A DNA stretch of 64,000 bases from a bacterium (GTDB lineage: Bacteria; Patescibacteriota; Minisyncoccia; Phycocordibacterales; Phycocordibacteraceae), in contig JAJZTG010000003.1 of NCBI GenBank assembly GCA_021849125.1, positions 2,133 through 66,132 of the forward strand, written 5' to 3'. Made by a program: the position numbers and the translations under genes. Under the pieces are notes generated by a model. The model worked only from the letters and a program-made list of their open reading frames with translations. It was not told the DNA's origin and searched no databases. Numbering within the stretch: the stretch's first letter is position 1; every line of letters starts with the position of its first letter. Positions 2,096 through 45,372 of the stretch are shown one piece after another.

Positions 2096-2099
2096 GAAC

Positions 2100-3886: not shown

Positions 3887-3925
3887 GGAAACATTGTACT
3901 CCCGGTATGGTAGAGTGCACCCATC

Positions 3926-4609: not shown

Positions 4610-4644
4610 TCACCACCCTGTTAAATCCCTTCAAATCGGCCGCT

Positions 4645-4904: not shown

Positions 4905-4906
4905 TC

Positions 4907-4915
4907 TGGTAGACT
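4907..4915 (+). promoter_or_regulatory. extended -10 (TGGTAGACT) abutting the ATG; leaderless candidate
   Basis: TGnTAnnnT motif immediately before the ATG at 4916. Confidence 0.35.
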
Positions 4916-5146: not shown

Positions 5147-5160
5147 CCGTTTTGTAATAA

Positions 5161-5192
5161 AGACTCGCGCACGAAACGTGCGCGAGTCTTTG
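5161..5192 (+). terminator. rho-independent terminator
   Basis: Perfect 13-bp stem AGACTCGCGCACG/CGTGCGCGAGTCT with an AAA loop, then TTTG. Confidence 0.65.
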
Positions 5193-5199
5193 CTATACT
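5191..5199 (+). promoter_or_regulatory. extended -10 box TGCTATACT
   Basis: Lies 7 nt upstream of the ATG at 5207. The identical 9-mer recurs at 31063 and 45418. Confidence 0.45.
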
Positions 5200-5206
5200 C
5201 ACTCAT

Positions 5207-7087: not shown

Positions 7088-7088
7088 C

Positions 7089-8351
7089 ATGACGTTGCTG
7101 AGCCGTACCGGAATCATTGCTGTCGTGGCTATGGCTTTCCCGGTTACGGCGTTTGCGTCGAGCGCTCCGACGCTTACGACCTACACTATTTCTGATACGA
7201 CGATCTATCCGACCGCTTCTGTCGGATCCGGCTTCGCGACCTCGACGACTATCGATATCGCGTTCTCCGAGAAAGTGAAAGCTTCGATCAAGCTTCAGTC
7301 ATCGGACGGCTCTACGCTCACGCTTTACTCGAGCTCAGGCGTTACGAACCCGAGTCCGAAAACGTGGGACGGGACGGACGGGAATGGCGCCGCTGTGGCA
7401 AACGGTACCTACACCGTCTTCATAGCGGCGACCTCGATCGCCACCGGTCTCGACATGAGCGATTCGTCGAAGACGATAATCGTGAGTTCATCATCGACCT
7501 CAAGTGCACCGACACCGACCGTTTCTGGGAGTGCGACGGTGTATGTACCTCCACCCTCAGCCCTTATCGTCTCCGCAGGAGCTGATCAATCGGTCATGGC
7601 TGAAGTCCCTGTATCGTTCTCAGTGAAGGTAACCGCAAAGGGTGGCGGCGAGGACTCTGCGGCGAAGGTCGTCTGGAGTTTCGGCGACGGTTCCTCAGCT
7701 GAGGGTAAGGCGGTTGAGAAAACATACCGATATCCCGGCACGTATCTTGTCGTCGTGACTGCCACAGACGGTTCGGCAAAGGCGACGGATGATCTTATCG
7801 TGAAGGTTACGCGTCCGATGGTGGGTATCACGTCGGTTGCAGGTGAGGGGATCACGCTCAAGAACGATTCTGATGACCGACTCGACCTTTCGAATTGGCG
7901 GATCGTCTCGGGTATCGCTACTTTCCGTATACCGCTTGGCATGACGCTTCTCCCGCATGCGAGCGTCATGTTCCCGTACACGATCACGAATCTGCCGGTG
8001 AGTTTCGATGCGGTACTCGAATACCCAAACGGTCTCGTCGCTGCGCGGTACGCACCGCAACCGGTCCCTGGGGCGGTTCTCGCGACAGTGCAACCTCAAG
8101 CGCCTGTTGCGAGTTCTCCTTTAGTGCAAGCGGTCGAACCGATTAGCAGTAGAAAGGCAGCCGTCAAGCCCAATGAACAAGCAGTAATCGCCCCCGCAGC
8201 AGCGATGGAACTCGCTGCTGCGGGGGCGGCCATCCCCGAGAGAGAAGAAGCCGTCTCGCAGTCTTCTGAGCGTAGCTTCTTCTCGTCGCCTTGGACCTAT
8301 GGGTTCCTTGGGGTCGTGGTGTTGGCCGCGGGCGCGTTCATTCTCTTATAA
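7089..8351 (+). CDS. surface protein: signal peptide + FlgD-Ig-like + PKD + lamin-tail-like domain + C-terminal TM anchor
   Basis: Signal peptide MTLLSRTGIIAVVAMAFPVTAFA. Motifs: WDGTDGNGAAVANGTYTVFIAAT (FlgD Ig-like), VVWSFGDGSSAEGKAVEKTYRYPGTYLVVVTATDGS (PKD) and LSNWRIVSG (LTD). Hydrophobic C-terminus FLGVVVLAAGAFILL. Confidence 0.65.
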   Translation: MTLLSRTGIIAVVAMAFPVTAFASSAPTLTTYTISDTTIYPTASVGSGFATSTTIDIAFSEKVKASIKLQSSDGSTLTLYSSSGVTNPSPKTWDGTDGNGAAVANGTYTVFIAATSIATGLDMSDSSKTIIVSSSSTSSAPTPTVSGSATVYVPPPSALIVSAGADQSVMAEVPVSFSVKVTAKGGGEDSAAKVVWSFGDGSSAEGKAVEKTYRYPGTYLVVVTATDGSAKATDDLIVKVTRPMVGITSVAGEGITLKNDSDDRLDLSNWRIVSGIATFRIPLGMTLLPHASVMFPYTITNLPVSFDAVLEYPNGLVAARYAPQPVPGAVLATVQPQAPVASSPLVQAVEPISSRKAAVKPNEQAVIAPAAAMELAAAGAAIPEREEAVSQSSERSFFSSPWTYGFLGVVVLAAGAFILL

Positions 8352-8363
8352 GATCGAGAACCG

Positions 8364-8398
8364 CCCCAGATGTGAAAGTCCGACTTTCACATCTGGGG
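8364..8398. repeat. perfect 17-bp-arm palindrome (REP-like / terminator hairpin), core AAGTCCGACTT
   Basis: CCCCAGATGTGAAAGTC-C-GACTTTCACATCTGGGG, 13 nt after the stop at 8351. It shares a 20-bp identity with the element at 61041..61064. Confidence 0.7.
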
Positions 8399-8436
8399 CG
8401 GAAAGGGTAGTTTTACGGTATGCTTTCATTAATTTC

Positions 8437-9294
8437 ATGGACAAACAGAAACTCATCGTAGTCACCGGCGGGGCAGGGTTCATAGGCTCGCACCTCTGCG
8501 AGCGCCTGGTGAAAGACGGCCACAAGGTCATCTCGCTCGACAACTACTTCACCGGAAGCCGGGACAACCACGTTCCTGGCGTCGAGTATCGTGAGGGGCA
8601 CACCAAAGACATCGAGAAGCTTATCCCAGAGACGCCGGATATCGTTTACCACTTGGGAGAGTACTCGCGTGTCGAGAAGAGTCTTGAGGAGCCGGCGCTC
8701 GTCTGGGATTTGAACAAGGACGGCACATTCGGCGTTGTCGAGTTTTGGCGGAAAAAAGGAGGGAAGTTAGTCTACGCCGGTTCCTCGACTAAATTCGGTG
8801 ACGGCGGTCTCGGTCGTATGCAAAGTCCCTACGCATGGAGCAAGGCGAGTAATACCGAACTCATAAGGAATTACGGTGCGTGGTACGGGTTGCCGTACGC
8901 GATAACTTATTTCTATAACGTATATGGTCCAGGTGAACGGGCCGGCACATACGGCACCGTTATTGAGATATTCCGTCAGAAAGTGCTCGCAGGCGAGCCG
9001 CTTGAGGTTACGTCGCCTGGAACACAGAAGCGCAATTTTACGCATGTCGACGACATCATAGATGGCCTTATCTTGGTTGGCGAGGATGGTATCGGAGATG
9101 ACTTTGGTATCGGAGATGAAAAAGCATATTCGATTATTGAGGTGGCACAGATGTTTGGGAAAGAGATTGTCATGAAGCCTGCGGCGGCCGGCAATCGTAT
9201 GGGTTCGGATATCGATACCAGCAAGGTGCAGGCTCTCGGGTGGACTCCAAAGAAACATCTCAAGGAGTACATACGAGAAACGTTCGGTGCATGA
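8437..9294 (+). CDS. NAD-dependent epimerase/dehydratase, UDP-glucuronate decarboxylase (UXS)-like
   Basis: VVTGGAGFIGSHLCERLVKDGHKVISLDNYFTGSRDNH closely matches the UXS N-terminus. YAWSK catalytic YxxxK motif. Confidence 0.75.
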   Translation: MDKQKLIVVTGGAGFIGSHLCERLVKDGHKVISLDNYFTGSRDNHVPGVEYREGHTKDIEKLIPETPDIVYHLGEYSRVEKSLEEPALVWDLNKDGTFGVVEFWRKKGGKLVYAGSSTKFGDGGLGRMQSPYAWSKASNTELIRNYGAWYGLPYAITYFYNVYGPGERAGTYGTVIEIFRQKVLAGEPLEVTSPGTQKRNFTHVDDIIDGLILVGEDGIGDDFGIGDEKAYSIIEVAQMFGKEIVMKPAAAGNRMGSDIDTSKVQALGWTPKKHLKEYIRETFGA

Positions 9295-10502
9295 AGCGCG
9301 TATTAATATTCTCCCTTACATATTATCCGCGCTTCGTGGGCGGCGCGGAGGTTGCCCTCAAGGAGATCACCGATCGCATCTCTCCTGAGGAGATCGAGTT
9401 CCATATGGTGACACTCAGACTCGATTCTGAGTTGCCGGAGGAGGAAAAGATAGGGAATGTTATCGTGCACCGGATCGGCCTGACATGGAAAGCGCCTACC
9501 ATCGCCGATTTGCAAAAGTTTCCACTCAAGCTCACGAAATATTGGTACCAGTTCTCTGCAGCTCGCGCGGCGGAGAAGCTGCATCAGCAGTATCATTTCG
9601 ACGGCATCTGGGCGATGATGGCGCACTCATGCGCCGTTCCTGCCGGGATCTTCAAGAAGTGGCATCCAGAAGTGAAATATCTCCTGACTCTTCAGGAAGG
9701 AGATCCTCCCGAGTATATCGAGCGTCTCGCACGCCCGGTATGGCCGCTCTTCAAACGAGGGTTTACGAGTGCGGATGCACTCCAACCTATTTCGACCTTT
9801 CTTCTTAATTGGGGGAGAAGGATGGGCTTTACGGGTGAGGCTGAAATTATCCCGAATGCGGTGAATACGGCGCATTTCTCACAAGCGATAACGCCAGAAG
9901 CGCGCAACTCGACTCGCGCGGCCATCGTTCTCAAGTCTGACGATGTCGCACTGGTAACGACCTCGCGTCTCGTCCACAAGAATGCAGTTGATGATGTCAT
10001 ACGTGCGATCGCACTTCTTCCGGAGAATGTGCACTTCGTCATTTACGGCATCGGTCCGGACGAGGCCATGCTCAAGAAACTTTCCAAAGAGAGTGGAACC
10101 GAGAGACGCATCCACTTCATGGGGCAGATCGGCCATGATGAAATGCCGCGCGCGCTCAAAAGTTGTGATATTTTCATCCGTCCTTCGCGGTCCGAAGGTA
10201 TGGGGAATTCGTTTATCGAGGCCATGGCGGCTGAACTTCCCGTTATTGCGACACAGGAAGGGGGTATTGCAGATTTTCTTTTCGATGCGAAACGTAACCC
10301 TGACAAAAAGCCGACTGGTTGGGCTGTCGATAAGGATTCCCCAGAACAGATTGCTGAGGCAGTTAAGGACATCATCGGAAATCCGCTAGCGGTTGCACAA
10401 GTGCTTGAAACGGCACGTGAGCTTGCTATAGAGAAATATGATTGGAATCTCATTGCTGCACGCATGAAAACACTTTTCGATCGGCTTCTCGAAAGCAGGT
10501 AA
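9291..10502 (+). CDS. glycosyltransferase family 4 (GT-B)
   Basis: C-terminal GT1/GT4 signature region SRSEGMGNSFIEAMAAELPVIAT. ATGA-coupled to the upstream gene. Confidence 0.75.
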   Translation: MKRVLIFSLTYYPRFVGGAEVALKEITDRISPEEIEFHMVTLRLDSELPEEEKIGNVIVHRIGLTWKAPTIADLQKFPLKLTKYWYQFSAARAAEKLHQQYHFDGIWAMMAHSCAVPAGIFKKWHPEVKYLLTLQEGDPPEYIERLARPVWPLFKRGFTSADALQPISTFLLNWGRRMGFTGEAEIIPNAVNTAHFSQAITPEARNSTRAAIVLKSDDVALVTTSRLVHKNAVDDVIRAIALLPENVHFVIYGIGPDEAMLKKLSKESGTERRIHFMGQIGHDEMPRALKSCDIFIRPSRSEGMGNSFIEAMAAELPVIATQEGGIADFLFDAKRNPDKKPTGWAVDKDSPEQIAEAVKDIIGNPLAVAQVLETARELAIEKYDWNLIAARMKTLFDRLLESR

Positions 10503-10511
10503 AATAATTGT

Positions 10512-11612
10512 ATGAAAATAGTCGTCGCGACGCCTTTGTATCCGCCTGAGCCGGGCGGGCCTGCCACGTACGCGAAAGCCCTTGAAGAAGGTCTTCCAGG
10601 GAAGGGCATCGAGGTCGTGCTCGTTAAGTTCGGCGAGGTGCGGCACTTGCCGAAGATCGTGCGGCATATCGCATATTATCTGCGCGTACGTCGTGCGCTC
10701 AAAGGAGCCGATCTCGTGCTTGCGCTTGATCCGGTCTCGGTCGGCCTGCCGGCCTGCCTTGCCGCATGGACGCTTCGGAAGCCGCTCGTCGTGAAGGTGG
10801 TGGGCGACTACGCCTGGGAACAAGGGCAGCAACGTTTCGGTGTCACAGCTACGCTCGACGATTTCGTCCAGCATGACGATGCGCCATTTATGGTCGGGCT
10901 CTTGCGCGAAGTGCAGAAGGGCGTCGCCGAGTATGCGGCGCGTATTATCGTGCCGAGCGAGTATCTCAAAGGGGTCGTCGTCGCGTGGGGCATCCCGAAA
11001 GAAAAAATCACGGTTATCTACAATGCGGTCCCGCAAGGGAGCGTGGGCGAAGTGCCCAAAGCAGTGGCGATGCTGCCGCGTCCGCTCGTGGCGACGGCTG
11101 GCCGTTTGGTCCCCTGGAAACATGTCGACAGCATCATCGATACAATCGCGGTGCTTCGCCAGCAGGGAAGCCATGTGTCGCTCGCTATCATCGGGAGCGG
11201 GCCAGAACAGGCGCATCTTGAAGCGCACGCAAAGAAAGCGCTCGGCGCGCACGTCGTATTCACCGGCGCCCTGCCGCACGAGGATCTCCTCGCGAGTCTC
11301 GCAAGCGCAGATGCCTTCGTGCTCAACTCTTCGTATGAGGGGCTCTCGCATCTGCTCATCGAAGCGCTCGCGCTTGGCGTACCTACGGTCGCGACTGATG
11401 TCGGTGGCAACCCGGAGGTCATCACGCACGGCGCTACAGGGCTTCTCGTACCAGCGGGGGATACGGACGCCCTCGCTGGAGCGCTTACACGCCTTCTCTC
11501 AGAAAACGATCTGCGGGAGCGTGTCGCGCGTGCGGCCAAGGAATCCGTCCACCGTTTCTCAAAAGGAACGATGATCGAACACACCGCTGAGCTGCTCGTT
11601 TCTTTTTCGTAA
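10512..11612 (+). CDS. glycosyltransferase group 1
   Basis: E-x7-E region NSSYEGLSHLLIEALALGVPTVATDVGG. Confidence 0.75.
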   Translation: MKIVVATPLYPPEPGGPATYAKALEEGLPGKGIEVVLVKFGEVRHLPKIVRHIAYYLRVRRALKGADLVLALDPVSVGLPACLAAWTLRKPLVVKVVGDYAWEQGQQRFGVTATLDDFVQHDDAPFMVGLLREVQKGVAEYAARIIVPSEYLKGVVVAWGIPKEKITVIYNAVPQGSVGEVPKAVAMLPRPLVATAGRLVPWKHVDSIIDTIAVLRQQGSHVSLAIIGSGPEQAHLEAHAKKALGAHVVFTGALPHEDLLASLASADAFVLNSSYEGLSHLLIEALALGVPTVATDVGGNPEVITHGATGLLVPAGDTDALAGALTRLLSENDLRERVARAAKESVHRFSKGTMIEHTAELLVSFS

Positions 11613-32622: not shown

Positions 32623-33420
32623 ATGGATGAAATAATTATTGAAGAAAAGAAATACGTATCGTCTAAGCAAGCTGCAAAGATAACCGGCTATGCGAAAGAT
32701 TATGTAGGGCAACTATGCCGAGAAGGTCGTGTACCGGCTCGTCTCGTCGGGCGTAGTTGGTATGTGCTCGAGTCGGCTATCCAGGATCATCGTTTCGGAG
32801 CGCCTGAGCTATCGGAAGAAGCTTCTAATGAGCCGATTCCGGTCTCGGTAGAGACCCAGGTCATCTCGACTCGCTATGAAGCGGTGGAAACGCCTGTATT
32901 GCCTTCTATAAACCGCTTGCGTGAGGATGTTCCGAGTATGCAGGACCAGGGTGAAGATTCGGAGGATTCAAAATCGCAAGATCTCCGTGATGCCTGGAGC
33001 AATTGGTTTAATGAGCTTCCGGTAGAGGAAAAGTCTGAGGCTGCTACTGAAGCTCCTGAGCCGATAGCGCCAGCAGAAGAAACCTCTCAGGCTATGATGG
33101 AAGAGCTTGAGGAGCCTGCAGCGCCAGTTCCAGAGGAAGAGTCTACTCAAGAGTCTGTATCTATACACATTCTTGATCGTACGTATCGTCCTACACTTGA
33201 GACGCTTGCTCCTCAGCAAGAAGAGTACCCAGCAGCGCCTGTGCGGAAGGATACACAGAAGGGTGCCCCTACTATAAGCCGCGCCGTCCGTGCTTCAGCG
33301 GTCATCATAGCGGTGATTACCGTAGTGCTTGCGGCATTCGGTACAGGTTACTTCGATACATATCTAACCTCGAATAGCCAAGCAGCATACTTAGGAGGAA
33401 TATCTATTTACAATAAATAG
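32623..33420 (+). CDS. membrane-anchored protein with N-terminal excisionase-type HTH (HTH_17) domain, acidic linker and C-terminal TM helix
   Basis: SSKQAAKITGYAKDYVGQLCREGRVPARLVGRSWYVLESAIQDHR matches the HTH_17 pattern. An E/P-rich linker follows. TM helix AVIIAVITVVLAAFGTGYF near the C-terminus. Confidence 0.6.
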   Translation: MDEIIIEEKKYVSSKQAAKITGYAKDYVGQLCREGRVPARLVGRSWYVLESAIQDHRFGAPELSEEASNEPIPVSVETQVISTRYEAVETPVLPSINRLREDVPSMQDQGEDSEDSKSQDLRDAWSNWFNELPVEEKSEAATEAPEPIAPAEETSQAMMEELEEPAAPVPEEESTQESVSIHILDRTYRPTLETLAPQQEEYPAAPVRKDTQKGAPTISRAVRASAVIIAVITVVLAAFGTGYFDTYLTSNSQAAYLGGISIYNK

Positions 33421-34046: not shown

Positions 34047-37000
34047 ATGAACTCTCCATTACAAAATCTCGTAACGACAAAAGAGGCAAGTGAGTCGTCG
34101 GGGTACACGTCGGACTATCTTGCGCGACTTGTCCGTTCTGGAGAAATCGAAGGAAGAAAGATCGGCCACAACTGGTTCGTCGATCGGGTGTCGCTCGAAG
34201 AGTTTCGCGACAAGCAGCGGAGTCGAAAGCTTGACCGTGCCCGTGAGCTGAGCGATACGCGCTCGCGTGAATATCACGGGAATCTTCAGGATGCGGGAGC
34301 GCCCGCACGGACCGTCCCTAAGGAGCTCATCCGGAAGACCGCGCTTCCTGCGGCAGAGGTGAGTCTTGCGCCGGTTTCGTTCGCTTCGCACCTGGTCGCT
34401 TTTACCGCAGCGCTTGCGATCGTGGGTGGCGGTGCGTTTGTCGCGCAAGCGAGCGTGGGCATACAAGCTGCAGGCCGCGTCGTTGCATTCGCGCAAGAAG
34501 CCGCAGATGGTTTCAAGATTGCTTTCGGTGATGCACCAGCACAGGTCGCCGCTCGTTTCGCGAATGTTGATACGATGATGCGCACGAGTGCCGATCGTGT
34601 CGCGATGAATGCTGCTTCGGCAGAAGCGGCGTATGCATCGCTACCGCTTGCACAGGTCACGCCGGCGACCATGCGCTCTTTCCTCGTGAAAGGATACGAG
34701 ACTCGTCAACGTGCGGTGTTCGCACAAGTGCCGTCATACAAGACTTCAACGTACGATCCGATCGATTGGGCTACGTTCGGACATGACACATACGCGTTCG
34801 TCACATCGCCGTCACGTATCCATGACGTGCTCAGTAACGCTTATCTCTCGGTAGGCATGAGCGCGTATCGCGGTATCGAGTCCGCGTTTTCCGCCTACGA
34901 AGCGTTCGTGAACCATGCGGGACAAGAGATGCTCGTGCTCGGCACCGCAACACGCGACGCGCTCGTTGCGTCGCCAAGCAAGGTCTCTCGAGCGGCAGTC
35001 GCGCTCGGCGAAGCTGTGCAAGATCTCACGCATGCGGCCATCCGTGCCGATGTTGCGCTCGCGTACGGCACCGCGGAAGCGGCGCCGGCAAGCGCGCGCG
35101 CGGTCGTGGCATTCCTCGGCTCTACGGGAAGTACGCTTGCGAATACGACGGAGCAGATCCCGCATGCGATCGCGGATGGATATCTCGCGGCTGCCGCATG
35201 GCCAGCTACCGCAGGGCCGCAACTCGCGTCGAGCGTATTCGGGCTTGAGTATCAGGCGGCACACCGCTTCGTCACGTTTACGGACGATCTATCGAGCCGA
35301 TACCTTGCCGTAGTCGAGGGCGCCGGAGCGTTTGCGTATGGTGCGACCGAGCATGCGAAATCGGCGGGCAGCCTGCTCGCCGTCGTTCCTGAGTGGCTCA
35401 CTTCAGACTCGCTCGCGCGTACGCATATTCCGCAGGCAGTCGCTGCAGTCGTAGCGGCGGTACCGGATCTCTCGGCGGGTCAACAAGCGGCACTCACGGT
35501 GTACCAGACCGTGAGCGGATTCCTCGGGGCAGCAAAGCATTTCATCGCATCGCTTATCCCGGCACCTCAGAACGTCGCGGTGCAGACGCCGGCACCGGCG
35601 GTCGCGACGACCACCGAGCGTATCATCACTGTTCCGCAGAACGTGACGACCTATCCGACCTACACCACTGTCGTGCGCGGCGCATCGCAAGAGTACGTCG
35701 CGCAGTCGATCTCATCGCTTCGAGCGGAAGTGCTCGCGACGGTCGCGAACATGATTGCTCCGATCGCGCATCAGACCGCGACCAACATCACGACGATCCA
35801 GCAGGTAAACCGCATCCAGGACCTCTCCGATCTCATCGTGCGCAACGGCGACTTCCGCGGCGGTACGTTCGACAACGGCAGGATCACGAACGGCATCTCC
35901 GTATCGGCAAACACGGGAACCTTCACGACGCTTTCGGGAGGGTCGACCTCGCTTGCAACAACGACTATCACTGGCAATCTTACGCTTAACGGTAATCAGA
36001 CGATATCTGGCTCACTCACGATCGGAACGACGACCATCACCGGACCACTTTCCACTTCGGGGACTATTACGGGCACCTACTTTGTCGCCACGAGCACGAC
36101 CGCTACTTCGACCCTTGCCGGTTCGCTTAACATCGATAGTGGGGGCTTCGTATATGCGACGTCGACACGCAACGTCGGCATCGGGGTGCTCTCGCCAGCC
36201 GCGCTTCTTGCTATACAGAACAGTACGTCGACGCAGCCGATCTTTACGGTCAAGAATGCGGCAGGTACCGAGGTATATCGCATCACGGACTCAGGATTCG
36301 TCGGCATCGGCTCCACGAGCCCTACCTACAATCTCGCGGTCGAAGGTACTTCTTCGCTCGGCAACAACGCGATTGCGGGTTACTTCACGGCCACGTCGAC
36401 GACCGCGACTTCGACCTTTGCAGGAGCGCTTGCGGTAGGCACGACTTCTCCCGTCGCAGGTGCGCTCTTCACTGTAGGCACTTCGACGCCACTGCTCCAC
36501 ATCTCAAGCAATACGGGCTACATCGGCATCGGTACGTCCTCTCCCGCGGTCGCTCTCGATCTCTACGCGACGACCGCGATGCGCATCCCGGTCGGTACGA
36601 CCGCCCAGCGTCCTTCTGGCGACGTCGGGTACATCCGCTACAACACCACCACGCATCAGTTCGAGGGTTACGGTGACAATTCCGTCTGGCAAGGGCTTGG
36701 CGGCGTCATCAATGCTGCGCAGACGACCTACATCACGGCCGGTACCGACGACTTCCTTCGTTTCGTTACCTCAAGCGTCGAACGCATGACCATCACCGCC
36801 GCAGGCCTAGTCGGCATCGGCTCCACAAGCCCGACGTACAACTTCTCGGTCGAAGGCACCTCTTCGCTCGGCAACAACGCGATTGCGGGTTACTTCACGG
36901 CCACGTCGACGACCGCGTCGCAGTTCCCCTACGCTTCCACCACGGCGCTTTCCGCCTACAACTCTCTCTTTGCCGGAAGCACGGCTACCTCAACCATCGC

Positions 37001-40000
37001 GGGTGACTACAATGCCTCAAGCATCCGCGGCGCGCTCACGGTCTACGGCAATACGACTTCCGGCTCAGCCAGCTCGCTTACGCTCCAGAGGGGAAGTACG
37101 AACGGTGACAACACGCTCGCCTTCAATGATCAGACCGGCTCGCCGCTCTTGAAGCTCTATACGAGCGCCAATACCGGCTACAGCTACCTCACTGGTTACC
37201 AGAGCTATCTTTCTCTCGGCACGAGTCTCGGTGGGCAGGTGTTGCGTATCGACACCTCGGGGAACATCACCACTACCGCGAACGTCATCCCATCGGCAAA
37301 CCAGACCTACAATCTCGGCTCACCGGCTGTTTACTGGAACAATGCGTACATAAACAACATCGTCGCGAACAACCTCTCCTCAGCCTCGACCTCGATCGCC
37401 GGCACGAACACGAGTTCTTTCAGCATCTATTCGAACAATCCGACCACTGACACTCAGGACATCTCGCTCATCTTCTATCGCGGCGCAGGCGCGTCTTCAA
37501 ACGGCGTCCTCGCATGGAACTCGACCTTGAAGCGTTTCGATCTCAATCAGAACCTTCACATCGTGAATGACTCGACCGCACCCGCTTCGACGACCCTCGT
37601 AGTCCAGGGCGTGTCGGGGCAGACGGGGCCGCTCACAAGCTGGCTCAACTCAGCTGGCGAATATCTCGCCACGCTCACCTCCAGTGGCTCCTTCGGCATC
37701 GGCACATCCTCGCCCTATGCGAGCCTCTCTATCGCAGGCTCGGCGGGAGGCACCTCAAGCCTCTTCGCCATCTCGACCTCGACCGCTGGATACGCGACCA
37801 CCACCGCGCTTTCGGTAGACCGAAACGGCAACCTATCGCTCCTAAACGGCGCGAGCCTTACGGTCTCCGGTACGACCAGTTTCTCTGGCTCATTTAGTCC
37901 GAATGTCGGCAGCAATGTTCTTCTCTCGACCAATGCCTCTGGCAACATCGTCGCGACTTCCTCACCGACGGCGGATTACTTCACCGCGACCAGCACAACC
38001 GCCTCGCAATTTCCCTATGCATCGACCACGGCGATTACAGCAAGCGGTACCGGATACTTCGGTTCTTTGGGCGGTGCAGCCTTCTCCTCGCTTACCACAA
38101 ACTACCTGCCGAAGTGGGGAAATGGTACGTTCTCGAATTCGCTCATCTTTGACAACGGCACCAACGTCGGCATCGGGACGACGAGCCCCTCCGCACTTCT
38201 TTCTATCCAAAACAACGTCTCTACCTCTTCGCCCGTTGTCTCGCTCTTTGATTCAACTGGTGCAACGTCGCTCGAGTTGCGTGCTTCGACCTCGACGCTC
38301 AACAATACCTTCATCGGAGTGAATGCTGGCGCCGTGAACACCACCGGTTCTGCTAATACTGTAATCGGGTACGGATCTTTTCCGGTGAATACCACGGGTT
38401 ATTCGAACGTCGCTGTCGGTTTTAATACGCTCTTTTCAAACACGACCGGATATTCGAATACCGCTCTTGGCATTAATGCGCTCTACACGAACACGTCCGG
38501 GTATGAGAACGTATCTGTCGGTCGTGCTTCTCTCTATTCAAATACAACCGGCACTTGGAACAGCGCCACAGGCTATCGAGCCCTCTACTCAAACACCACA
38601 GGGGTATCAAATACCGCAAATGGTTGGGGTGCTCTCAATAAAACCACGACGGGTTCCTATAACAGCGCCATTGGCGATTCCTCACTGTACTTCAATACGA
38701 CGGGCGCTAGTAACGTCGCTGTGGGCGCAGGCTCGCTCTACTACAATAACGCCGCCACTTCTTCCGTCGCAATCGGTCGTCAAGCCGGTCGCGGTACCGC
38801 CGCCTACGCGAACCAAGGCGGCGTGTACGTGGGCTACCGGTCAGGCTACAGCGCCGCCACCGGTTCAGATTTCAATACGTTTGTAGGCTACACAGCTGGC
38901 TACAACACCACCACAGGCACCTACAACATAGCGAATGGTGCCTATGCTCTCTATTCAAATACAACCGGCAACTTTAACAGTGCTCTTGGTGTGAGTGTCC
39001 TTTATGCCAACACCACCGGCTCGTACAACGTTGCAGACGGTTTTAACACACTTCGTTACAACACCACCGGCTCGTACAACGTTGCAGACGGTACAAACGC
39101 ACTCTTCTCGAACACTACTGGTGCCAACAACGTCGCTGAAGGAGCGAGTGCCCTTTACTACAACGCCTCCGCGACTTCTTCTGTCGCAGTAGGCTACGCC
39201 GCCGCTTCAGGCGCTGCCGCCTACGCGAACCAAGGCGGCGTGTACGTGGGCTACCAGTCAGGCTACAGCGCCGCCACGGGTTCAGATTTCAATACGTTTG
39301 TAGGCTACACAGCCGGATACAATACCACCACAGGCACCTACAACATAGCGAATGGTGCCTATGCTCTCTATTCAAATACAACCGGCAACTTTAACAGTGC
39401 TCTTGGTGTGAGTGTCCTTTATGCCAACACCACCGGCTCGTACAACGTTGCAGACGGTTTTAACACACTTCGTTACAACACCACCGGCTCGTACAACGTT
39501 GCAGACGGTACAAACGCACTCTTCTCGAACACTACTGGTGCCAACAACGTCGCTGAAGGAGCGAGTGCCCTTTACTACAACGCCTCCGCGACTTCTTCTG
39601 TCGCAGTAGGCTACGCCGCCGCTTCAGGCGCTGCCGCCTACGCGAACCAAGGTGGCACCTACCTCGGCTACCAGTCTGGCTATTCCGCAGCCACCGGTTC
39701 CGACTACAACACCCTTGTTGGCTACCAATCCGGCTATGGTATCACCACGGGCTCCAACAACATTTGGATCGGTGCTGCCACTTCTTCAACCGCCATTGCC
39801 AATCTCACTACCGGTTCGCAGAACATCCTTATCGGTAACAACATCTCTCTTCCCAGCGCCACCGCTTCAGGTCAGTTGAACATCGGCAACATCATCTTCG
39901 GTACGGGTATCACTGGAACCGGCTCAACCGTTTCAACGGGAAACATCGGGGTGGGGACGGCGGGGCCGGGGGCGAAGTTGCATATATACGACGGAGGTAC

Positions 40001-43000
40001 TGGAACATCCGACAGCGACCTCTTACGCCTTCAAACCACTTATGGCACCAATTCGGCGAAGAAATCCATCAGTTGGTATGACACGACAAATGTTACGGGA
40101 CAAATTGATACCCGATATGATGGAACCACCGTAGATATGGTTTTTGGCAGCTTGTATAACACCACCGATTTATATAATTCTACGGCCAGAATGGTGATTA
40201 AAGGAAACGGCAACGTCGGCATCGGGACGACCGCGCCCTCCGCGCCACTCACGATTCAAAACAACGTTGCGACCTCCTCGCCGATTCTCTCATTCCTTGA
40301 CTCGACCGGCGCGACCTCACTCGAGATCCGCGCGTCCACCTCGACGCTCCTCAACACCTTTATAGGTACGAGTGCGGGTGCGGCAAACACCACTGGCTAC
40401 TACAATACTGCTACCGGTTATGGTGCCCTCTACTCAAACACCACTGGTTACCAAAACGTCGCAAATGGTATCGCCGCTCTCTACGCAAACACGAGCGGCT
40501 ACCGTAACGTTGCCACCGGTGGGAACGCGCTTCGCTACAACACTACCGGTAATAACAACGTCGCAAGTGGCGACGCGGCGCTCTTCTCCAACATCACCGG
40601 TACTTCAAACGTCGCGCTCGGCAGCACCGCGCTCTACTACAACGCCTCCGCAACTTCGACGGTGGCAGTCGGTTTCAATGCCGCCGCCGGCACCGCCGCG
40701 TACTCCAACCAAGGCGGCGTGTACGTGGGTTACCAAGCCGGCTACAGCGCCCAGACCGGTTCCGACTACAACACGCTCGTTGGTTATAGTGCCGGCCACG
40801 ATGTAACGACCGGTACCGCAGAAGTGGCCCTTGGGGCAAATGCACTTCTTCACACCACTACCGGCAATCACAACGTTGCGATTGGTATTAGCGCTTTGCA
40901 ATCAAACACCACCGGGGGTGCGAATGTCGCGATCGGCAGCTCAGCTTTACAAAATGACGTATCAAGTGGCGGTAGTACCGCTGTCGGGTATCAAACGCTC
41001 AGTGCAAACACTACGGGTGCCAACAACGTCGGTCTCGGTTACTATGCACTCGTCAATAACAAGACGGGTTCCAACAACGTCGCATTGGGTGGGAATTCCC
41101 TCCAGTCGAACATCACCGGCTCTGAGAACACTGCTGTCGGTTTGGGGGCGCTTTACTACAACGCTTCCGCCACTTCTTCGGTCGCAATCGGGCGTGCTGC
41201 CGCCCAAGGCACAGCCGCCTACTCCAACCAAGGTGGTGTGTACGTGGGCTACCTGGCTGGCTACAGCGCCCAGACGGGTTCCGACTACAACACATTCGTG
41301 GGCTACACGGCAGGTTACAACACCACTACCGGCTATTGGAACGTTGGAAATGGTTATGAATCCCTGTACTCAAACACCACTGGTGATCAGAACATTGCCC
41401 TCGGTCCAAAAGCGCTCCGCTCCAACACCACAGGAAGGTTTAATTTCGCAGGAGGTGCGTACGCGCTTTATTCAAATACCACCGGTACTTCAAACGTCGC
41501 GATCGGCAATCAGGTCGCTTACTTCAACTCGTCCGCCACATCGACCGTCGCTATTGGCTATTACGCAGCTCAAGGCACCGCCGCATACTCAAACCAAGGT
41601 GGTGTGTACGTGGGCTACCTGGCTGGCTACAGCGCCCAGACCGGCTCGGACTACAACACGTTCGTGGGCTACCAGTCTGGCTATTCAGACACCGTTGGTT
41701 TTTACAATACAGCTTCTGGGTACACAGCGCTCTACTCAAACGCTGGGGGTTCTTATAATAATGCCTACGGTAGCGCTGCGCTCCAGAACACGACAGGATC
41801 TCAGAATACGGCAATTGGATCGGGCGCAGGTAGCGGCATCACAAGCGGTTCCAACAACATTGCTATCGGCTATAACGCCCAGGTGCCGACACCGACCGCT
41901 TCGAACCAGATTCGCCTCGGCGATGCGAATATCACTTACGCGGGTATCCAGGTGTCGTGGACGGTGACATCCGATCGCAAGTACAAGACCGACATCAAGC
42001 CGGTTGCTTTCGGCCTCGACTTCGTGAATCAGCTTCAGCCAGTCGACTACTTGCGCGTGAATGATGCAAGCGGCGGCAGGGAAGCCGGCTTCGTGGCGCA
42101 GGACGTGAATCAGACGCTCCTCTCTGCCACCTCGACCGCCTATGGGCTCATAAGCTACGACCCGACGGCCGCTGCTTACTCGCTCCGCTACAACGACTTC
42201 ATCCCGATCCTCACCCGCGCAGTGCAGCAGCTTGATACGAAGGTAAACCTTATCGCGAGCTCGACCGCGTCGACGACGCAGATCTTCGTCGACACCACGG
42301 GTAACGTCGGCATCGGCACCACCAGTCCGAATCATACTTTGACGATCGCGGGCGACGTGGGTGCGATCGCCTTCGTGAACACTTCGACGCGCACGGCAAA
42401 GACCGACATCAGCTATGTCGGCGAGTCGGCAAGCGACGAGATGTATGACCAGCTTCTCAAGATCAAGGTCGCGAACTACCGCTACAAGATCGAGCCCACG
42501 AGCGATCCGCTCCGCCTCGGCTTCATCGCGGAAGAGGTGCAGCAAGTAGCTCCTGAGATCCTCTCGCCCGATGGTAAGGGCGTCGACCTCTACAAGCTCG
42601 CGACCTTCACGCTCTCGGGCGTGCAGACCTTGGCCGGGAAGGTCGACGCGCAGGGCGTGCGGCTCGCCTCGCTTGAGGACCGCGTCGCCAAGCTCGAGAG
42701 CGGGGACGTCTCGGTGGCAAGCGGCTCGCCGGTGAGCTTCTCCTCAGCATCGCTTGCAAGCGCGCTTAGCGGGTTCGGCGTGCTTATCGACAAGGGCATC
42801 GCGCAGTTCAATACGCTCGTCTTCCGCACGCTCGTGGCAAGCTCGGATGCCGATGGGACCAGTAGCGCGGGCAGCGTGACGATCCTCACCGGCAATACCG
42901 TCGCCCAGGTGAATAATGCGCTCGTGAAGCCTTCGACCAAGATCTTCGTCACCTTCAACGCGCAGCTTACGGGCAGCTGGTGGGTGAGCGACAAAGCCGA

Positions 43001-43754
43001 CGGCTCCTTCCGCGTGGTGCTCTCCGACCCTCAGACGGGCGACGTCTCCTTCGACTACTTCCTCGTCCAGACGGAAGGCCAGATCGCGACCCCGACGGCA
43101 AGCGGCTATCAAGGCATCTCGCAATCGAGCGGGCCGGATACGGTCGCGCCGGTGATCACGCTCCTCGGCGATAACCCGGTGTACCTCTCGGTCGGTGGTA
43201 CTTTCACGGAGCCGGGGGTCACCGTGACCGATAACGCCGACGGCACGGATCCGTACAAGACCTACGTGAACGGTATCGAGCAGGCGGCGGACGCAGGGAC
43301 CATCGATACCTCGAGTCCGACGACTTACATCATCACCTACACCGCACGAGACGCGGCAGGAAATACGACCAGCGCGCACCGCTCGGTAATCGTCGGCAAT
43401 CCGGACGGTACGGTCTCGGCTGACAGCGGAAGTCCGACTTCCACAGACACGACCGCACCGGTCGTGACCCTGAACGGCTCTGCGGCGATGGAACTTGTCC
43501 AGAGCGGTACCTTCACCGACCCGGGCGCGACCGCCACTGACGATACCGATGGCGACCTCACTGCAAAGGTCGTGGAGACGGGCAGCGTGGATACTGCGAC
43601 GACAGGCCTCTACACGCTCACGTACTCGGCTACCGACGCGGCGGGGAACACGGGCAGCGTCTCGCGCGTCGTTTCGGTCGTCGCGCCGGCGGCGGCCACG
43701 ACGACCGAGACGACGGCCACTGGCGGCACGGCCTCCTCCACCCCGGCACAATAA
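34047..43754 (+). CDS. giant (3235 aa) membrane-anchored fibre/adhesin: N-terminal HTH_17 + TM, phage-tail-fibre-like NTTG 17-residue repeats, two Peptidase_S74 intramolecular-chaperone domains, two DUF5011 Ig-like domains
   Basis: One uninterrupted ORF. N-terminal TTKEASESSGYTSDYLARLVRSGEIEGRKIGHNWFVDRVSLEEFR (HTH_17). TM helix LVAFTAALAIVGGGAFVAQ at aa ~108-128. Repeats of xxNxAxGxxALYSNTTG. S74 motif TSDRKYKTDIKP...GFVAQDV (~41.9-42.25 kb). Second S74 STRTAKTDI...VANYRYK...LGFIAEEVQQVAPEI (~42.3-42.7 kb). DUF5011 motifs DTVAPVITLLGDNP and DTTAPVVTLNGSAAMEL...TDDTDGDLTAKV. Confidence 0.85.
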   Translation: MNSPLQNLVTTKEASESSGYTSDYLARLVRSGEIEGRKIGHNWFVDRVSLEEFRDKQRSRKLDRARELSDTRSREYHGNLQDAGAPARTVPKELIRKTALPAAEVSLAPVSFASHLVAFTAALAIVGGGAFVAQASVGIQAAGRVVAFAQEAADGFKIAFGDAPAQVAARFANVDTMMRTSADRVAMNAASAEAAYASLPLAQVTPATMRSFLVKGYETRQRAVFAQVPSYKTSTYDPIDWATFGHDTYAFVTSPSRIHDVLSNAYLSVGMSAYRGIESAFSAYEAFVNHAGQEMLVLGTATRDALVASPSKVSRAAVALGEAVQDLTHAAIRADVALAYGTAEAAPASARAVVAFLGSTGSTLANTTEQIPHAIADGYLAAAAWPATAGPQLASSVFGLEYQAAHRFVTFTDDLSSRYLAVVEGAGAFAYGATEHAKSAGSLLAVVPEWLTSDSLARTHIPQAVAAVVAAVPDLSAGQQAALTVYQTVSGFLGAAKHFIASLIPAPQNVAVQTPAPAVATTTERIITVPQNVTTYPTYTTVVRGASQEYVAQSISSLRAEVLATVANMIAPIAHQTATNITTIQQVNRIQDLSDLIVRNGDFRGGTFDNGRITNGISVSANTGTFTTLSGGSTSLATTTITGNLTLNGNQTISGSLTIGTTTITGPLSTSGTITGTYFVATSTTATSTLAGSLNIDSGGFVYATSTRNVGIGVLSPAALLAIQNSTSTQPIFTVKNAAGTEVYRITDSGFVGIGSTSPTYNLAVEGTSSLGNNAIAGYFTATSTTATSTFAGALAVGTTSPVAGALFTVGTSTPLLHISSNTGYIGIGTSSPAVALDLYATTAMRIPVGTTAQRPSGDVGYIRYNTTTHQFEGYGDNSVWQGLGGVINAAQTTYITAGTDDFLRFVTSSVERMTITAAGLVGIGSTSPTYNFSVEGTSSLGNNAIAGYFTATSTTASQFPYASTTALSAYNSLFAGSTATSTIAGDYNASSIRGALTVYGNTTSGSASSLTLQRGSTNGDNTLAFNDQTGSPLLKLYTSANTGYSYLTGYQSYLSLGTSLGGQVLRIDTSGNITTTANVIPSANQTYNLGSPAVYWNNAYINNIVANNLSSASTSIAGTNTSSFSIYSNNPTTDTQDISLIFYRGAGASSNGVLAWNSTLKRFDLNQNLHIVNDSTAPASTTLVVQGVSGQTGPLTSWLNSAGEYLATLTSSGSFGIGTSSPYASLSIAGSAGGTSSLFAISTSTAGYATTTALSVDRNGNLSLLNGASLTVSGTTSFSGSFSPNVGSNVLLSTNASGNIVATSSPTADYFTATSTTASQFPYASTTAITASGTGYFGSLGGAAFSSLTTNYLPKWGNGTFSNSLIFDNGTNVGIGTTSPSALLSIQNNVSTSSPVVSLFDSTGATSLELRASTSTLNNTFIGVNAGAVNTTGSANTVIGYGSFPVNTTGYSNVAVGFNTLFSNTTGYSNTALGINALYTNTSGYENVSVGRASLYSNTTGTWNSATGYRALYSNTTGVSNTANGWGALNKTTTGSYNSAIGDSSLYFNTTGASNVAVGAGSLYYNNAATSSVAIGRQAGRGTAAYANQGGVYVGYRSGYSAATGSDFNTFVGYTAGYNTTTGTYNIANGAYALYSNTTGNFNSALGVSVLYANTTGSYNVADGFNTLRYNTTGSYNVADGTNALFSNTTGANNVAEGASALYYNASATSSVAVGYAAASGAAAYANQGGVYVGYQSGYSAATGSDFNTFVGYTAGYNTTTGTYNIANGAYALYSNTTGNFNSALGVSVLYANTTGSYNVADGFNTLRYNTTGSYNVADGTNALFSNTTGANNVAEGASALYYNASATSSVAVGYAAASGAAAYANQGGTYLGYQSGYSAATGSDYNTLVGYQSGYGITTGSNNIWIGAATSSTAIANLTTGSQNILIGNNISLPSATASGQLNIGNIIFGTGITGTGSTVSTGNIGVGTAGPGAKLHIYDGGTGTSDSDLLRLQTTYGTNSAKKSISWYDTTNVTGQIDTRYDGTTVDMVFGSLYNTTDLYNSTARMVIKGNGNVGIGTTAPSAPLTIQNNVATSSPILSFLDSTGATSLEIRASTSTLLNTFIGTSAGAANTTGYYNTATGYGALYSNTTGYQNVANGIAALYANTSGYRNVATGGNALRYNTTGNNNVASGDAALFSNITGTSNVALGSTALYYNASATSTVAVGFNAAAGTAAYSNQGGVYVGYQAGYSAQTGSDYNTLVGYSAGHDVTTGTAEVALGANALLHTTTGNHNVAIGISALQSNTTGGANVAIGSSALQNDVSSGGSTAVGYQTLSANTTGANNVGLGYYALVNNKTGSNNVALGGNSLQSNITGSENTAVGLGALYYNASATSSVAIGRAAAQGTAAYSNQGGVYVGYLAGYSAQTGSDYNTFVGYTAGYNTTTGYWNVGNGYESLYSNTTGDQNIALGPKALRSNTTGRFNFAGGAYALYSNTTGTSNVAIGNQVAYFNSSATSTVAIGYYAAQGTAAYSNQGGVYVGYLAGYSAQTGSDYNTFVGYQSGYSDTVGFYNTASGYTALYSNAGGSYNNAYGSAALQNTTGSQNTAIGSGAGSGITSGSNNIAIGYNAQVPTPTASNQIRLGDANITYAGIQVSWTVTSDRKYKTDIKPVAFGLDFVNQLQPVDYLRVNDASGGREAGFVAQDVNQTLLSATSTAYGLISYDPTAAAYSLRYNDFIPILTRAVQQLDTKVNLIASSTASTTQIFVDTTGNVGIGTTSPNHTLTIAGDVGAIAFVNTSTRTAKTDISYVGESASDEMYDQLLKIKVANYRYKIEPTSDPLRLGFIAEEVQQVAPEILSPDGKGVDLYKLATFTLSGVQTLAGKVDAQGVRLASLEDRVAKLESGDVSVASGSPVSFSSASLASALSGFGVLIDKGIAQFNTLVFRTLVASSDADGTSSAGSVTILTGNTVAQVNNALVKPSTKIFVTFNAQLTGSWWVSDKADGSFRVVLSDPQTGDVSFDYFLVQTEGQIATPTASGYQGISQSSGPDTVAPVITLLGDNPVYLSVGGTFTEPGVTVTDNADGTDPYKTYVNGIEQAADAGTIDTSSPTTYIITYTARDAAGNTTSAHRSVIVGNPDGTVSADSGSPTSTDTTAPVVTLNGSAAMELVQSGTFTDPGATATDDTDGDLTAKVVETGSVDTATTGLYTLTYSATDAAGNTGSVSRVVSVVAPAAATTTETTATGGTASSTPAQ
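38811..39644 (+). repeat. near-identical 417-bp tandem duplication (2 copies, ~98.8% identity) inside the giant gene
   Basis: Units 38811..39227 and 39228..39644 differ at 5 positions. One of these is a CGG/CAG Arg/Gln change. A diverged third copy begins at 39645. Each unit encodes 139 aa ending ...AAYANQGGVYVGYQSGYSAATGSDFNTFVGY. Confidence 0.9.
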
Positions 43755-43883: not shown

Positions 43884-44417
43884 ATGCGGAAAAAAGAAAA
43901 CAATTACGCTTTCATAGACAGCCAGAACTTGAACCTAGGTATACAGAGGCTCGGCTGGGGTCTTGACTACAAAAGATTCAGAGTGTACCTAGCTGAGAAA
44001 TACGGCGTTACGCGAGCGTATATGTTCATCGGCTTCGTGGCGCTAAATCAATCACTCTACGACAATTTGCAAGAAGCAGGGTTCATCTTGAAGTTCAAGC
44101 CTACGATTCCCGATATGGAGGGGAAAATTAAAGGGAACATAGATGCTGATCTTGTCTTGCGTGCCGTCCTTGAGATTGGCGAGTATGATACCGCTGTCAT
44201 TGTCACGAGTGATGGCGATTTCTATTCGCTCGTTCAGCATCTCTACGAAAATGGGAAATTGAAAGCCGTCCTGAGTCCGGATATACATATGGCTTCAAGC
44301 TTATTGAAACAAACCGCAAAAGAGAGAATCCATTTTATGAATGATTTGCGGGGTTTGCTGGGGTACAAAAGAAAAGCACCGCGAGGGGACGGAACCCGAC
44401 GCAGTGCCTTTCCCTAG
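43884..44417 (+). CDS. NYN-domain (LabA/DUF88-like) protein, putative RNase
   Basis: YAFIDSQNLNLGI ... RAYMFIGFV ... VIVTSDGDFYSLVQHL is the NYN/PIN-like acidic-residue pattern. Confidence 0.65.
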   Translation: MRKKENNYAFIDSQNLNLGIQRLGWGLDYKRFRVYLAEKYGVTRAYMFIGFVALNQSLYDNLQEAGFILKFKPTIPDMEGKIKGNIDADLVLRAVLEIGEYDTAVIVTSDGDFYSLVQHLYENGKLKAVLSPDIHMASSLLKQTAKERIHFMNDLRGLLGYKRKAPRGDGTRRSAFP

Positions 44418-44618: not shown

Positions 44619-45372
44619 TTACCAAGGTCGGACCTTGGTAATTAACGGTCAGGACATGTCTTTCGCGTAATCGCGTGCATCCGCGAGCATCGTGTCGAAA
44701 GAGGGTCTCTCTTCAACAAGTTCTAGTATCGAGTCAGTATCAGTGACACCTCTAAAATCCGAACGGTCGCTTATATAATCATTAAGGCTTGAGAAAGGGT
44801 ATTCTTGCAATTTCATGCGGAGCATCTTCTCATCAGAGACAAGACCTTCTTTCCACTTCGGTTCGTATAATTCCGCAGGATTCGCGTGGATATAGTTCAC
44901 GACTCTGCGTAGATATGAGTCATCCGCAACATGCTTCGCTTTGAATTTTCCGGAAAAGAGCGCCCCGGTACGATCGTACTTTTTATTGAAATACATCGTA
45001 TAGCCAGTACCCAGCTTGCGCATGAATGCCGTGATACCGCCCTCAATACGCTCGCGGATAAGAAGATGGTAGTGGTTAGGCATGAGCGCGTAGGCACCGA
45101 GATCAACAAAGGCATCGTTACGCTCCAGTCCAATAACTTTCTCCAAGGTCGGACCTTGGTTAAGTTGTTCGCGGAATGTGCTTAGGTGGAGAGGGGAGCT
45201 GCTGTTTGAGACGTAGAGAAGCATTTGGAATCGTTCGTAATCGCGGCGGTCCATGAAGATCGTGCGCTTATCGACACCGCGGCTGTAGCAGTGGAACCAT
45301 TCGTCCGGGGCAAAGGCGATTGCGCGCTCCATGTGCATAGTTTACCAAGTTACCAAGGTCCGACCTTGGTTT
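44619..45372 (-). mobile_element. RAYT (REP-associated tyrosine transposase, IS200/Y1 HUH family) unit with flanking REP palindromes
   Basis: Transposase CDS 44649..45338 (minus strand). HUH motif NHYHLL and catalytic-Tyr region NYIHANPAE. Perfect palindrome TTACCAAGGTCGGACCTTGGTAA at 44619..44641. Related copies ACCAAGGTCCGACCTTGGT at 45349..45372 and CCAAGGTCGGACCTTGG at 45143..45159, the latter inside the CDS. Confidence 0.7.
44649..45338 (-). CDS. REP-associated tyrosine transposase (IS200-like TnpA, Y1 HUH)
   Basis: 229 aa. FMDRRDYERFQMLL ... AYALMPNHYHLLIRE ... YLRRVVNYIHANPAE. Confidence 0.75.
   Translation of the reverse strand: MHMERAIAFAPDEWFHCYSRGVDKRTIFMDRRDYERFQMLLYVSNSSSPLHLSTFREQLNQGPTLEKVIGLERNDAFVDLGAYALMPNHYHLLIRERIEGGITAFMRKLGTGYTMYFNKKYDRTGALFSGKFKAKHVADDSYLRRVVNYIHANPAELYEPKWKEGLVSDEKMLRMKLQEYPFSSLNDYISDRSDFRGVTDTDSILELVEERPSFDTMLADARDYAKDMS

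Follow-up and report, generated by a model that had tools for sequence, protein, structure and literature searches.

Two Peptidase S74 domains in series near the C-terminal end of a giant candidate surface-fibre protein of Patescibacteria

The Peptidase S74/ICA domain is a textbook built-in folding chaperone that removes itself, and all of the characterised cases known to us involve a single copy. Characterised S74 domains cleave only once they have trimerised, at the bond directly N-terminal to the catalytic serine, and then separate from the mature protein (PMC10769870, PMC8326128, bioRxiv 10.1101/2024.10.28.620165). The bacterial fibre precedent is self-cleavage by an S74 domain with an SDxxxK motif, which for Bd3182 of Bdellovibrio gives separate fibre and chaperone species (PMC10769870), while in MyRF an internal ICA domain cleaves only as a trimer, driven by a C-terminal coiled coil, and releases an N-terminal trimer (PMC8326128). 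In an atlas of tail fibres, the mature phage fibre lacks both the S74 domain and the coiled coil downstream of it (bioRxiv 10.1101/2024.10.28.620165). Here we describe a giant open reading frame (ORF) from a member of the Patescibacteria, located in a stretch of 64,000 nucleotides of contig JAJZTG010000003.1 (GenBank assembly GCA_021849125.1; hereafter the window, meaning the whole stretch), whose predicted product carries two S74 domains in tandem (copy 1 and copy 2) near its C-terminal end.

By profile score and catalytic dyad, both domains are assigned to the Peptidase S74/ICA family. Pfam PF13884 (Peptidase_S74; model length 58 positions, gathering score 22 bits) matched the whole protein in two stretches, 67.1 bits together, and both halves rather than only one scored as S74 when scanned singly, copy 1 with 44.2 bits (E 2.4e-11, model positions 1-52) and copy 2 with 33.7 bits (E 4.5e-08, model positions 2-55). 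A hidden Markov model (HMM) from three S74 subtypes set the domain limits listed in Table 1. An unfiltered (--max) search of the six frames of the window with an S74 HMM found exactly two domains (i-E 1.5e-31 and 5e-29), and no extra or degenerate copy emerged below E=1.

A previous reading of this DNA from its letters alone (the sequence-only reading) had proposed two tandem S74 domains instead of one terminal copy, each with a Ser...Lys dyad and a GF(I/V)AQ(D/E)V block and each preceded by a GNVGIGTTSP segment. The tandem domains are real. The quoted motif blocks lie in one frame (aa 2622-2733, nt 41910-42245, and aa 2776-2867, nt 42372-42647) and each contains an intact dyad (S2642-D-R-K-Y-K2647 and S2780-T-R-T-A-K2785). 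Two details needed amendment. The GF block holds for the first domain (GFVAQDV) but not for the second, which reads GFIAEEV; among three aligned S74 subtypes, no columns are invariant except those of Ser and Lys and, within 'GFIAQ', those of G and A. The GNVGIGTTSP segment precedes copy 2 but not copy 1, which is directly preceded by '...SNNIAIGYNAQVPTPTASNQIRLGDANITYAGIQVSWTVT'; 'GNVGIGTT' occurs at aa 2055 and 2752 only, the latter 20 aa upstream of the copy-2 serine. Neither domain is terminal, as 498 residues separate the end of copy 1, and 366 that of copy 2, from the C-terminus, and the architecture is no peculiarity of one gene, being conserved throughout a protein family. With both dyads intact, two autoproteolytic events are the natural prediction.

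We folded the two S74 halves separately because MAFFT had twice placed copy-1-type homologs on copy 2. The AlphaFold2 (AF2) model of copy 1, based on 20 homologs, had a predicted local distance difference test score (pLDDT) of 78-96 over the domain, and its top Foldseek matches in the PDB were the MyRF ICA (7dc3), endoNF (3gw6), 3gud and T5 pb1 (4uw8), with a probability of 0.92-1.00 for the first ten. In these predicted structures the ICA fold is confirmed for copy 1 alone. Copy 2 aligns by sequence to the MyRF ICA 7dc3, its best sequence match in the PDB (E 0.004), and the alignment includes the dyad positions and a Y-R-Y motif (aa 2809-2811), which lies beside the predicted scissile bond and is aligned to MyRF Y615/Y617. 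Mutagenesis of MyRF has established that the dyad and Y-R-Y residues matter (PMC8326128).

The pair of domains is conserved in other genomes. Scanning one genome per GTDB species for the C-terminal segment that starts with copy 2, which we call the cassette, gave 58 loci, all in Patescibacteria. An adjacent S74 pair in a single ORF is present in 30 of these 58 loci, and additionally in locus L001 and in the window, and all 32 pairs retain an intact dyad in each copy. Linkers are 27-80 aa long (median 34 aa) and contain one 'GNVGIGTTTPNHTL' unit. Among the pairs, the sequence of copy 1 varies (SDARLK, SDERLK, SSIRFK, SDRKYK and others) and that of copy 2 is conserved (FVNTSTRxAKTDI). When 1.84 billion representative proteins were surveyed by profile, 234,795 S74 proteins emerged, and details were taken from the top 150 of these hits, with 143 best new hits, under a summed-score ranking that favours multi-copy proteins. 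Among those 143, 136 have at least two near-complete S74 domains (two in 124, three in 11 and five in 1). The S..K dyad is kept in every copy of 122 of the 136 clusters, and one copy has a substituted dyad in 14; the latter indicate that the dyad is not structurally obligatory, so its retention points to catalysis. The last two copies are adjacent in 87 of the 135 clusters with a classified layout, 57 of these 87 having a C-terminal tail of at least 150 aa. A tblastn search of 50,697 phage records, which is of limited sensitivity, gave 44 hits, none spanning both copies at one place.

Some relatives contain more than two copies. Three to five complete S74 domains are found in P0121 (5473 aa), P0124, P0137, L049:1938-8387 and L001:9097-11920, where about 460-1400 aa separate copies that are not neighbours and the final two are adjacent in most, though not in P0137. 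One Paceibacterota genome (locus L011) has two tandem-S74 pairs in separate ORFs within 11 kb (~600-1700 and 2006-11434), both with the conserved linker and copy 2, which points to paralogous fibre genes with a common cassette.

Comparison with orthologous giant genes revealed where the two copies belong. The orthologs match the window protein from aa 1 to about 700-930 and then only near the C-terminal end, where the second matching stretch begins at aa 2632-2642, the start of copy 1, in tandem-bearing orthologs and at aa 2723-2764, within the linker or where copy 2 begins, in single-S74 orthologs; the approximately 1700 aa between the two matching stretches are unrelated among orthologs. As judged from these alignments, the giant protein is a mosaic in which a conserved N-terminal region of ~930 aa and a C-terminal cassette frame a variable fibre body. 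The cassette consists of a capping-loop turn, S74 copy 2, a long helix, a beta-sandwich like a tailspike tip and two Ig-like domains, and the cassette proper begins with '..DGKGVDLYKLATF..', corresponding to the final strand and the helix of copy 2. The helix, predicted in the AF2 model, is a probable trimeric coiled coil and marks the start of the most conserved cassette. The beta-sandwich, modelled with confidence, resembles distal domains of phage tailspikes and of the R2 pyocin fibre (for example Pam1, K64-1 S2-4, Sf6 and phi297; probability 0.96-1.00).

Copy 1 together with the 40 aa upstream aligns end to end with 14 proteins at 50-57% identity, two of which are named, both as Bacteroidota tail fiber domain-containing proteins (Winogradskyella and Aureibaculum), and in all 14 the S74 domain ends 6-56 aa short of the C-terminus. 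Because copy 1 and the last ~40 aa of the fibre match C-terminal S74 ends elsewhere, copy 1 belongs to the variable body. Copy 2 shares 46-75% identity with Patescibacteria cassette proteins. On this alignment evidence, we read copy 1 as the ordinary terminal chaperone of a variable fibre module and copy 2 as the first element of a constant cassette.

Within the family, alternative modules stand before the cassette, namely a complete S74 of another subtype (P0024, P0025, P0027 and P0078), Peptidase_G2 or an intein. In P0084, P0089 and P0090, S74 is replaced upstream of the same Patescibacteria cassette by Peptidase_G2 (PF11962), a different family that does not occur in the window. PF11962 is, we presume, the phi29 gp12-type autocleaving chaperone, in which case an unrelated self-processing module would occupy the slot of S74 in these three proteins.

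The intein, a class-1 element (Cys1 ... TxxH ... HN/T) that the window lacks, lies in relatives exactly between copy 1 and the cassette. In locus L026 (~1000-2500), a single ORF comprises S74 copy 1, a contiguous intein (Intein_splicing, 67.2 bits), copy 2 and the cassette, with a NYN domain (56.1 bits) nested inside the intein at the usual place of the homing endonuclease. In loci L002 (20-4804), L004, L019, L020, L061 (4300-9545) and L062 (1-4973), the intein is split over two genes: the first is a giant gene ending in copy 1, an N-intein 'Q/CV.GDT.L...TTANHPF' and a stop codon, the second a C-intein '...THNFVGNDIFAHN/T' fused to the cassette, and between them lie ~2-3.2 kb of ORFs that include a PD-(D/E)XK nuclease-like protein, NYN and PemK. 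By its sequence, it appears to be a natural case of a split intein, carried by a surface-fibre gene of bacteria of the candidate phyla radiation (CPR). The sequence blocks of the intein seem to be intact, suggesting that fibre and cassette have to be joined as a single chain, and the position of the intein between copy 1 and the cassette implies a need for the precursor to be covalently continuous. The intein provides independent evidence for a one-chain precursor, a requirement that is consistent with action of the cassette in cis on the precursor. The linker in the window, '...ASTTQ/IFVDTTGNVGIG', resembles a spliced junction, and by this resemblance the window may represent an intein-free allele.

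The ORFs in the gap of the split loci recur. The 521-aa product of L002:844-2409 contains a zinc-finger-like CxxC motif and matches PD-(D/E)XK nucleases marginally (22.2 bits; gathering score 22), and the adjacent L002:2413-2880 (155 aa) has no Pfam match; L061 and L062 contain ORFs of comparable length (432-438 aa and 156-159 aa) at the same gap position. A free NYN gene is present in the gap at L061:5628-6161 and L062:576-1208, and in the window a NYN gene (43884-44417, + strand) lies immediately downstream of the giant gene, which suggests that the NYN nuclease is associated with the intein.

The account that we favour, and hold to be fairly probable, is that the two domains, which are genuine but distantly related S74 chaperone/autoproteases, lie towards the C-terminus of a giant anchored surface fibre, probably a trimer, that trimerisation proceeds from the cassette end and that both domains cleave themselves. 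The individual steps, which we infer from endoNF, T5 pb1, Bdellovibrio Bd3182 and MyRF, would be as follows. Copy 2 and the extended helix would nucleate the trimer, so that the C-terminal ends of three chains come into register; copy 1 and the capping turn would fold onto copy 2; and copy 1, thus positioned, would template folding of the long fibre in the C-to-N direction. Each trimerised S74 domain would then cut before its own serine, at T2641/S2642 and T2779/S2780. The predicted products would be an anchored mature fibre (aa 1-2641, 268.5 kDa) with a tip newly exposed by cleavage, a fragment consisting of copy 1 and one beta-helix turn (aa 2642-2779, 14.7 kDa), and a fragment consisting of copy 2 together with the cassette (aa 2780-3235, 46.5 kDa). 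A hydrophobic segment at aa ~105-140 is presumed from hydropathy to be a single membrane anchor, with the remainder of the protein extracellular; together with the N-terminal HTH_17-like domain, this segment appears to anchor the fibre.

Several points weigh against this account. Self-cleavage at either site is argued by analogy with characterised domains, and the membrane topology is drawn from hydropathy and a sub-threshold helix-turn-helix (HTH) match only. The AF2 model of copy 2 is poor: pLDDT is 35-68 across the S74 part, the C-terminal helix alone is reasonably modelled, and the fold of copy 2 therefore rests on the sequence evidence. Moreover, the AF2 models are monomers, so the relative arrangement of the copies and the trimer lie outside them. 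There is no evident reason to build a tip-like beta-sandwich and two Ig-like domains for removal, and a cut at copy 1 alone should sever everything downstream, leaving the purpose of the second cut unexplained.

In an alternative that we regard as unlikely, only one copy cuts, most likely the fibre-attached copy 1, and the other does no more than trimerise the cassette and bring it into register. Copy 1 would by itself suffice for fibre release, and the 14 multi-S74 clusters with a substituted dyad in one copy are in line with a single active site. So are proteins of the P0024/P0025/P0027/P0078 and L061/L062 type, which have lost the N-terminal half of copy 2 together with its dyad and keep the last strand, the helix and the cassette; as the C-terminal helix is kept in these variants despite the loss of the dyad, it appears to be the indispensable part of copy 2. 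However, copy 2 retains Ser and Lys wherever it has its N-terminal half (32/32 pairs; nearly invariant in the copy 2 alignment), and it also retains the Y-R-Y beside the scissile site.

We consider it improbable that both sites are cut and the pieces are then held together non-covalently, as in GAIN or SEA autoproteolysis, with the cassette serving as the working adhesive tip and possibly being shed by force. Such a role would account for the likeness of the beta-sandwich to the receptor-binding distal domains of tailspikes and pyocin fibres, for the PF16403 Ig-like domains, which are typical of surface adhesins, and for the cassette being the most conserved part of the giant protein. Yet no piece-retaining feature was identified in the protein, and the cleavage products of endoNF and of T5 pb1 separate. 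They also do so in Bd3182 (PMC10769870) and MyRF (PMC8326128), and S74 is absent from the mature phage fibre (bioRxiv 10.1101/2024.10.28.620165).

The sequence-only reading had also spoken of a duplicated chaperone, but a recent local tandem duplication of one terminal S74 is very improbable. The domains are adjacent and homologous at the profile level (hhalign of copy 1 against copy 2: probability 97.6%, E 2.8e-12), and a recent 417-bp tandem duplication exists elsewhere in the gene; nevertheless, the two copies share only 24% identity in the hhalign alignment and gave no alignment with BLASTP, and they are too divergent for a recent event. Their closest relatives differ as well, terminal S74 domains for copy 1 and Patescibacteria cassettes for copy 2, and the pair is conserved over dozens of species with copy 1 varying independently. 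Finally, an artefact, either an assembly chimera or two neighbouring genes read through as one, might be suspected of a highly repetitive gene whose source is probably a metagenome-assembled genome, but it is extremely improbable given the uninterrupted reading frame, the record of the same protein from an NCBI assembly (P0264, identical to the 3235-aa ORF product) along with 2 close variants, and the S74-linker-S74-cassette layout in at least 30 independent assemblies. We conclude that recent duplication and assembly artefact are effectively excluded.

A wider proposal, which we put forward tentatively and think somewhat unlikely, is that serial S74 domains form a processing system by which giant CPR precursors are converted into several trimeric products, akin to a 'poly-fibre' polyprotein. 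The conserved cassette would then be a portable folding primer, a chaperone of the chaperone, that must be covalently joined to the fibre module upstream of it, whichever that is, by trans-splicing in some genomes. Once the chains are in register it would be cut off, possibly to become a free lectin-like trimer. If this is true, the relatives with three to five S74 domains (P0121, P0124, P0137, L049 and L001) would each encode several fibre segments per gene, and interest in the arrangement would rise if serial S74 domains prove to split giant precursors into several products.

Table 1. Parts of the giant gene in the window, with nucleotide positions and residue numbers of the predicted protein
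Feature	Residues (aa)	Position (nt)	Strand	Remarks
Giant ORF	1-3235	34047..43754	+	Uninterrupted frame; 3235 aa, 329.7 kDa, Cys-free; Thr+Ala+Ser+Gly = 49%
Conserved N-terminal region	1 to ~930	34047..36836	+	24-41% identity in orthologous giant genes
HTH_17-like domain, N-terminal	8-58	34068..34220	+	Pfam 24.7 bits, below gathering score 27; cytoplasmic location presumed
Hydrophobic segment	~105-140	34359..34466	+	Sole region with Kyte-Doolittle 19-aa windows >1.6
Variable repeat-rich fibre body	~931-2599	36837..41843	+	Orthologs without conservation here; rich in Thr/Ala/Ser/Gly/Asn
Tandem repeat within fibre body, 417 bp (139 aa)		38799-39763	+	2.3 copies, 93% matches
Fibre end, '...SNNIAIGYNAQVP..NQIRLGDANITYAGIQVSWTVT'	2600-2641	41844..41969	+	Co-inherited with S74 copy 1
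S74 copy 1	2636-2737	41952..42257	+	Dyad Ser2642/Lys2647 at nt 41970-41987; GFVAQDV at 42087-42107
Linker, 36 aa		42258..42365	+	One 'GNVGIGTTSPNHTL' beta-helix capping-loop unit at 42300-42341
S74 copy 2	2774-2869	42366..42653	+	Dyad Ser2780/Lys2785 at nt 42384-42401; GFIAEEV at 42519-42539
Long predicted helix (~37 residues)	2848-2886	42588..42704	+	Continues last helix of S74 copy 2; AF2 model
Beta-sandwich	2909-3011	42771..43079	+	AF2 pLDDT 90-97
Bact_surface_Ig-like (PF16403) domain 1	~3035-3117	43149..43397	+	Pfam
Bact_surface_Ig-like (PF16403) domain 2	~3138-3211	43458..43679	+	Pfam

The fibre body itself is poor in recognisable families: the whole-protein Pfam scan assigned it no family, repeat families included, and aa 1381-2621 had zero matches in a sequence search of the PDB. 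The near-identical database relatives P0123 and P0265 measure 3109 and 3096 aa against the 3235 aa of the window protein, and fibre length is polymorphic in this sense. GC skew is strongly negative (-0.11 to -0.18) at 36001-42000, restricted to the giant gene, probably because of the codons that the Thr/Ala/Ser/Asn-rich repeats contain.

The surroundings of the gene are those of a bacterial chromosome. SecA, Obg, GatB and an HTH protein are encoded upstream, and downstream follow the NYN-domain gene, an IS200-like Y1 transposase, GAPDH, RpiB, Rpe and transketolase; the gene order in L001, L002 and L062 is the same as in the window, and all close homologs with a source name come from Patescibacteria (Kaiserbacteria, Paceibacteria and Parcubacteria among them). 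The giant gene is a chromosomal gene of a CPR bacterium. We rejected a phage or prophage origin on the grounds of the housekeeping neighbours, the synteny with other Patescibacteria and the lack of Pfam matches in its favour. Scans of the window for tRNA genes and Rfam families were empty. Just upstream of the giant gene, a 265-aa ORF (32623-33420, + strand) starts, like the giant protein, with HTH_17 (27.9 bits) and may encode a paralogous anchor or partner protein. The Y1 transposase homolog (44649-45338, - strand) lies between the fibre locus and GAPDH. As L062 has a Y1_Tnp gene at the corresponding place, the homolog seems to be conserved, and possibly domesticated, instead of newly inserted.

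Patescibacteria live as episymbionts, and little is known of the apparatus by which they attach to a host. The giant protein is a candidate for the long surface fibres by which they may contact their hosts, and its modularity, with a variable body in a conserved frame, is relevant to how host specificity might vary. The conservation of two S74 copies, up to five in relatives, and of their dyads implies that very large surface proteins process themselves in a nested or sequential manner. In the literature searched we did not find tandem or multiple S74 domains or this Patescibacteria family described, an absence confined to that literature and not a proof; there, S74 is given as a single domain, C-terminal in phage, contractile-injection-system and Bdellovibrio fibres and internal in MyRF. 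The domains are ordinary, and it is their serial arrangement, conserved and widespread in CPR genomes, that is apparently undescribed.

How, then, does the window protein compare with the systems that are known? With the S74 chaperones of phages (endoNF/K1F 3gw6, 3gud and T5 pb1 4uw8) it shares the Pfam family, the Ser-x4-Lys dyad, for copy 1 the predicted fold, and a presumed role, namely to trimerise, to template the upstream fibre and to cut itself off. The lysine follows five residues after the serine throughout, as S911/K916 in endoNF, S587/K592 in MyRF, and S2642/K2647 and S2780/K2785 here. Whereas the phage domains are single and located at or near the C-terminus, the window protein has two in series followed by 366 aa of folded domains. 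A YadA-like trimeric autotransporter was considered and rejected, as there was no YadA, Hep_Hag or anchor match in the whole-protein Pfam scan (E<=1) and the C-terminus consists of Ig-like domains.

MyRF (7dc3; PMC8326128, PMC3742443) is tethered to a membrane, as the window protein is presumed to be, and likewise has an internal ICA domain directly preceded by a capping-loop motif. It differs in that its ICA is single, its anchor lies C-terminal to the ICA rather than N-terminal, and it releases a transcription factor instead of a fibre.

The mosaic adhesive trimeric (MAT) fibres of Bdellovibrio bacteriovorus are likewise chromosomally encoded surface fibres made of 'GNVGIGT..P...L' capping-loop beta-helix units (PMC10769870). 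Their shaft motif is V-G-G/N-x-x-x-P-x-x-x-L (PMC10769870), and the 'GNVGIGTTSPNHTL' stalk segments of the window protein match the MAT structures 8ojn, 8ond and 8ol4 weakly (phmmer, E 0.05-0.6). MAT proteins end either in S74 (SDxxxK) or in beta-sandwich/lectin tips, with mosaic tip-swapping (PMC10769870). They have a signal peptide, a conserved beta-rich N-domain of ~130 aa, a length of ~1000 aa and one terminal S74 or a non-S74 tip, whereas the window protein combines an HTH and transmembrane N-terminus, 3235 aa, two S74 domains and a beta-sandwich/Ig tip in one chain. The different N-terminus argues against membership in the MAT family, the MAT N-domain having been compared by description only. 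By analogy, we propose that the window protein works like a self-processing trimeric fibre of the phage or MAT type.

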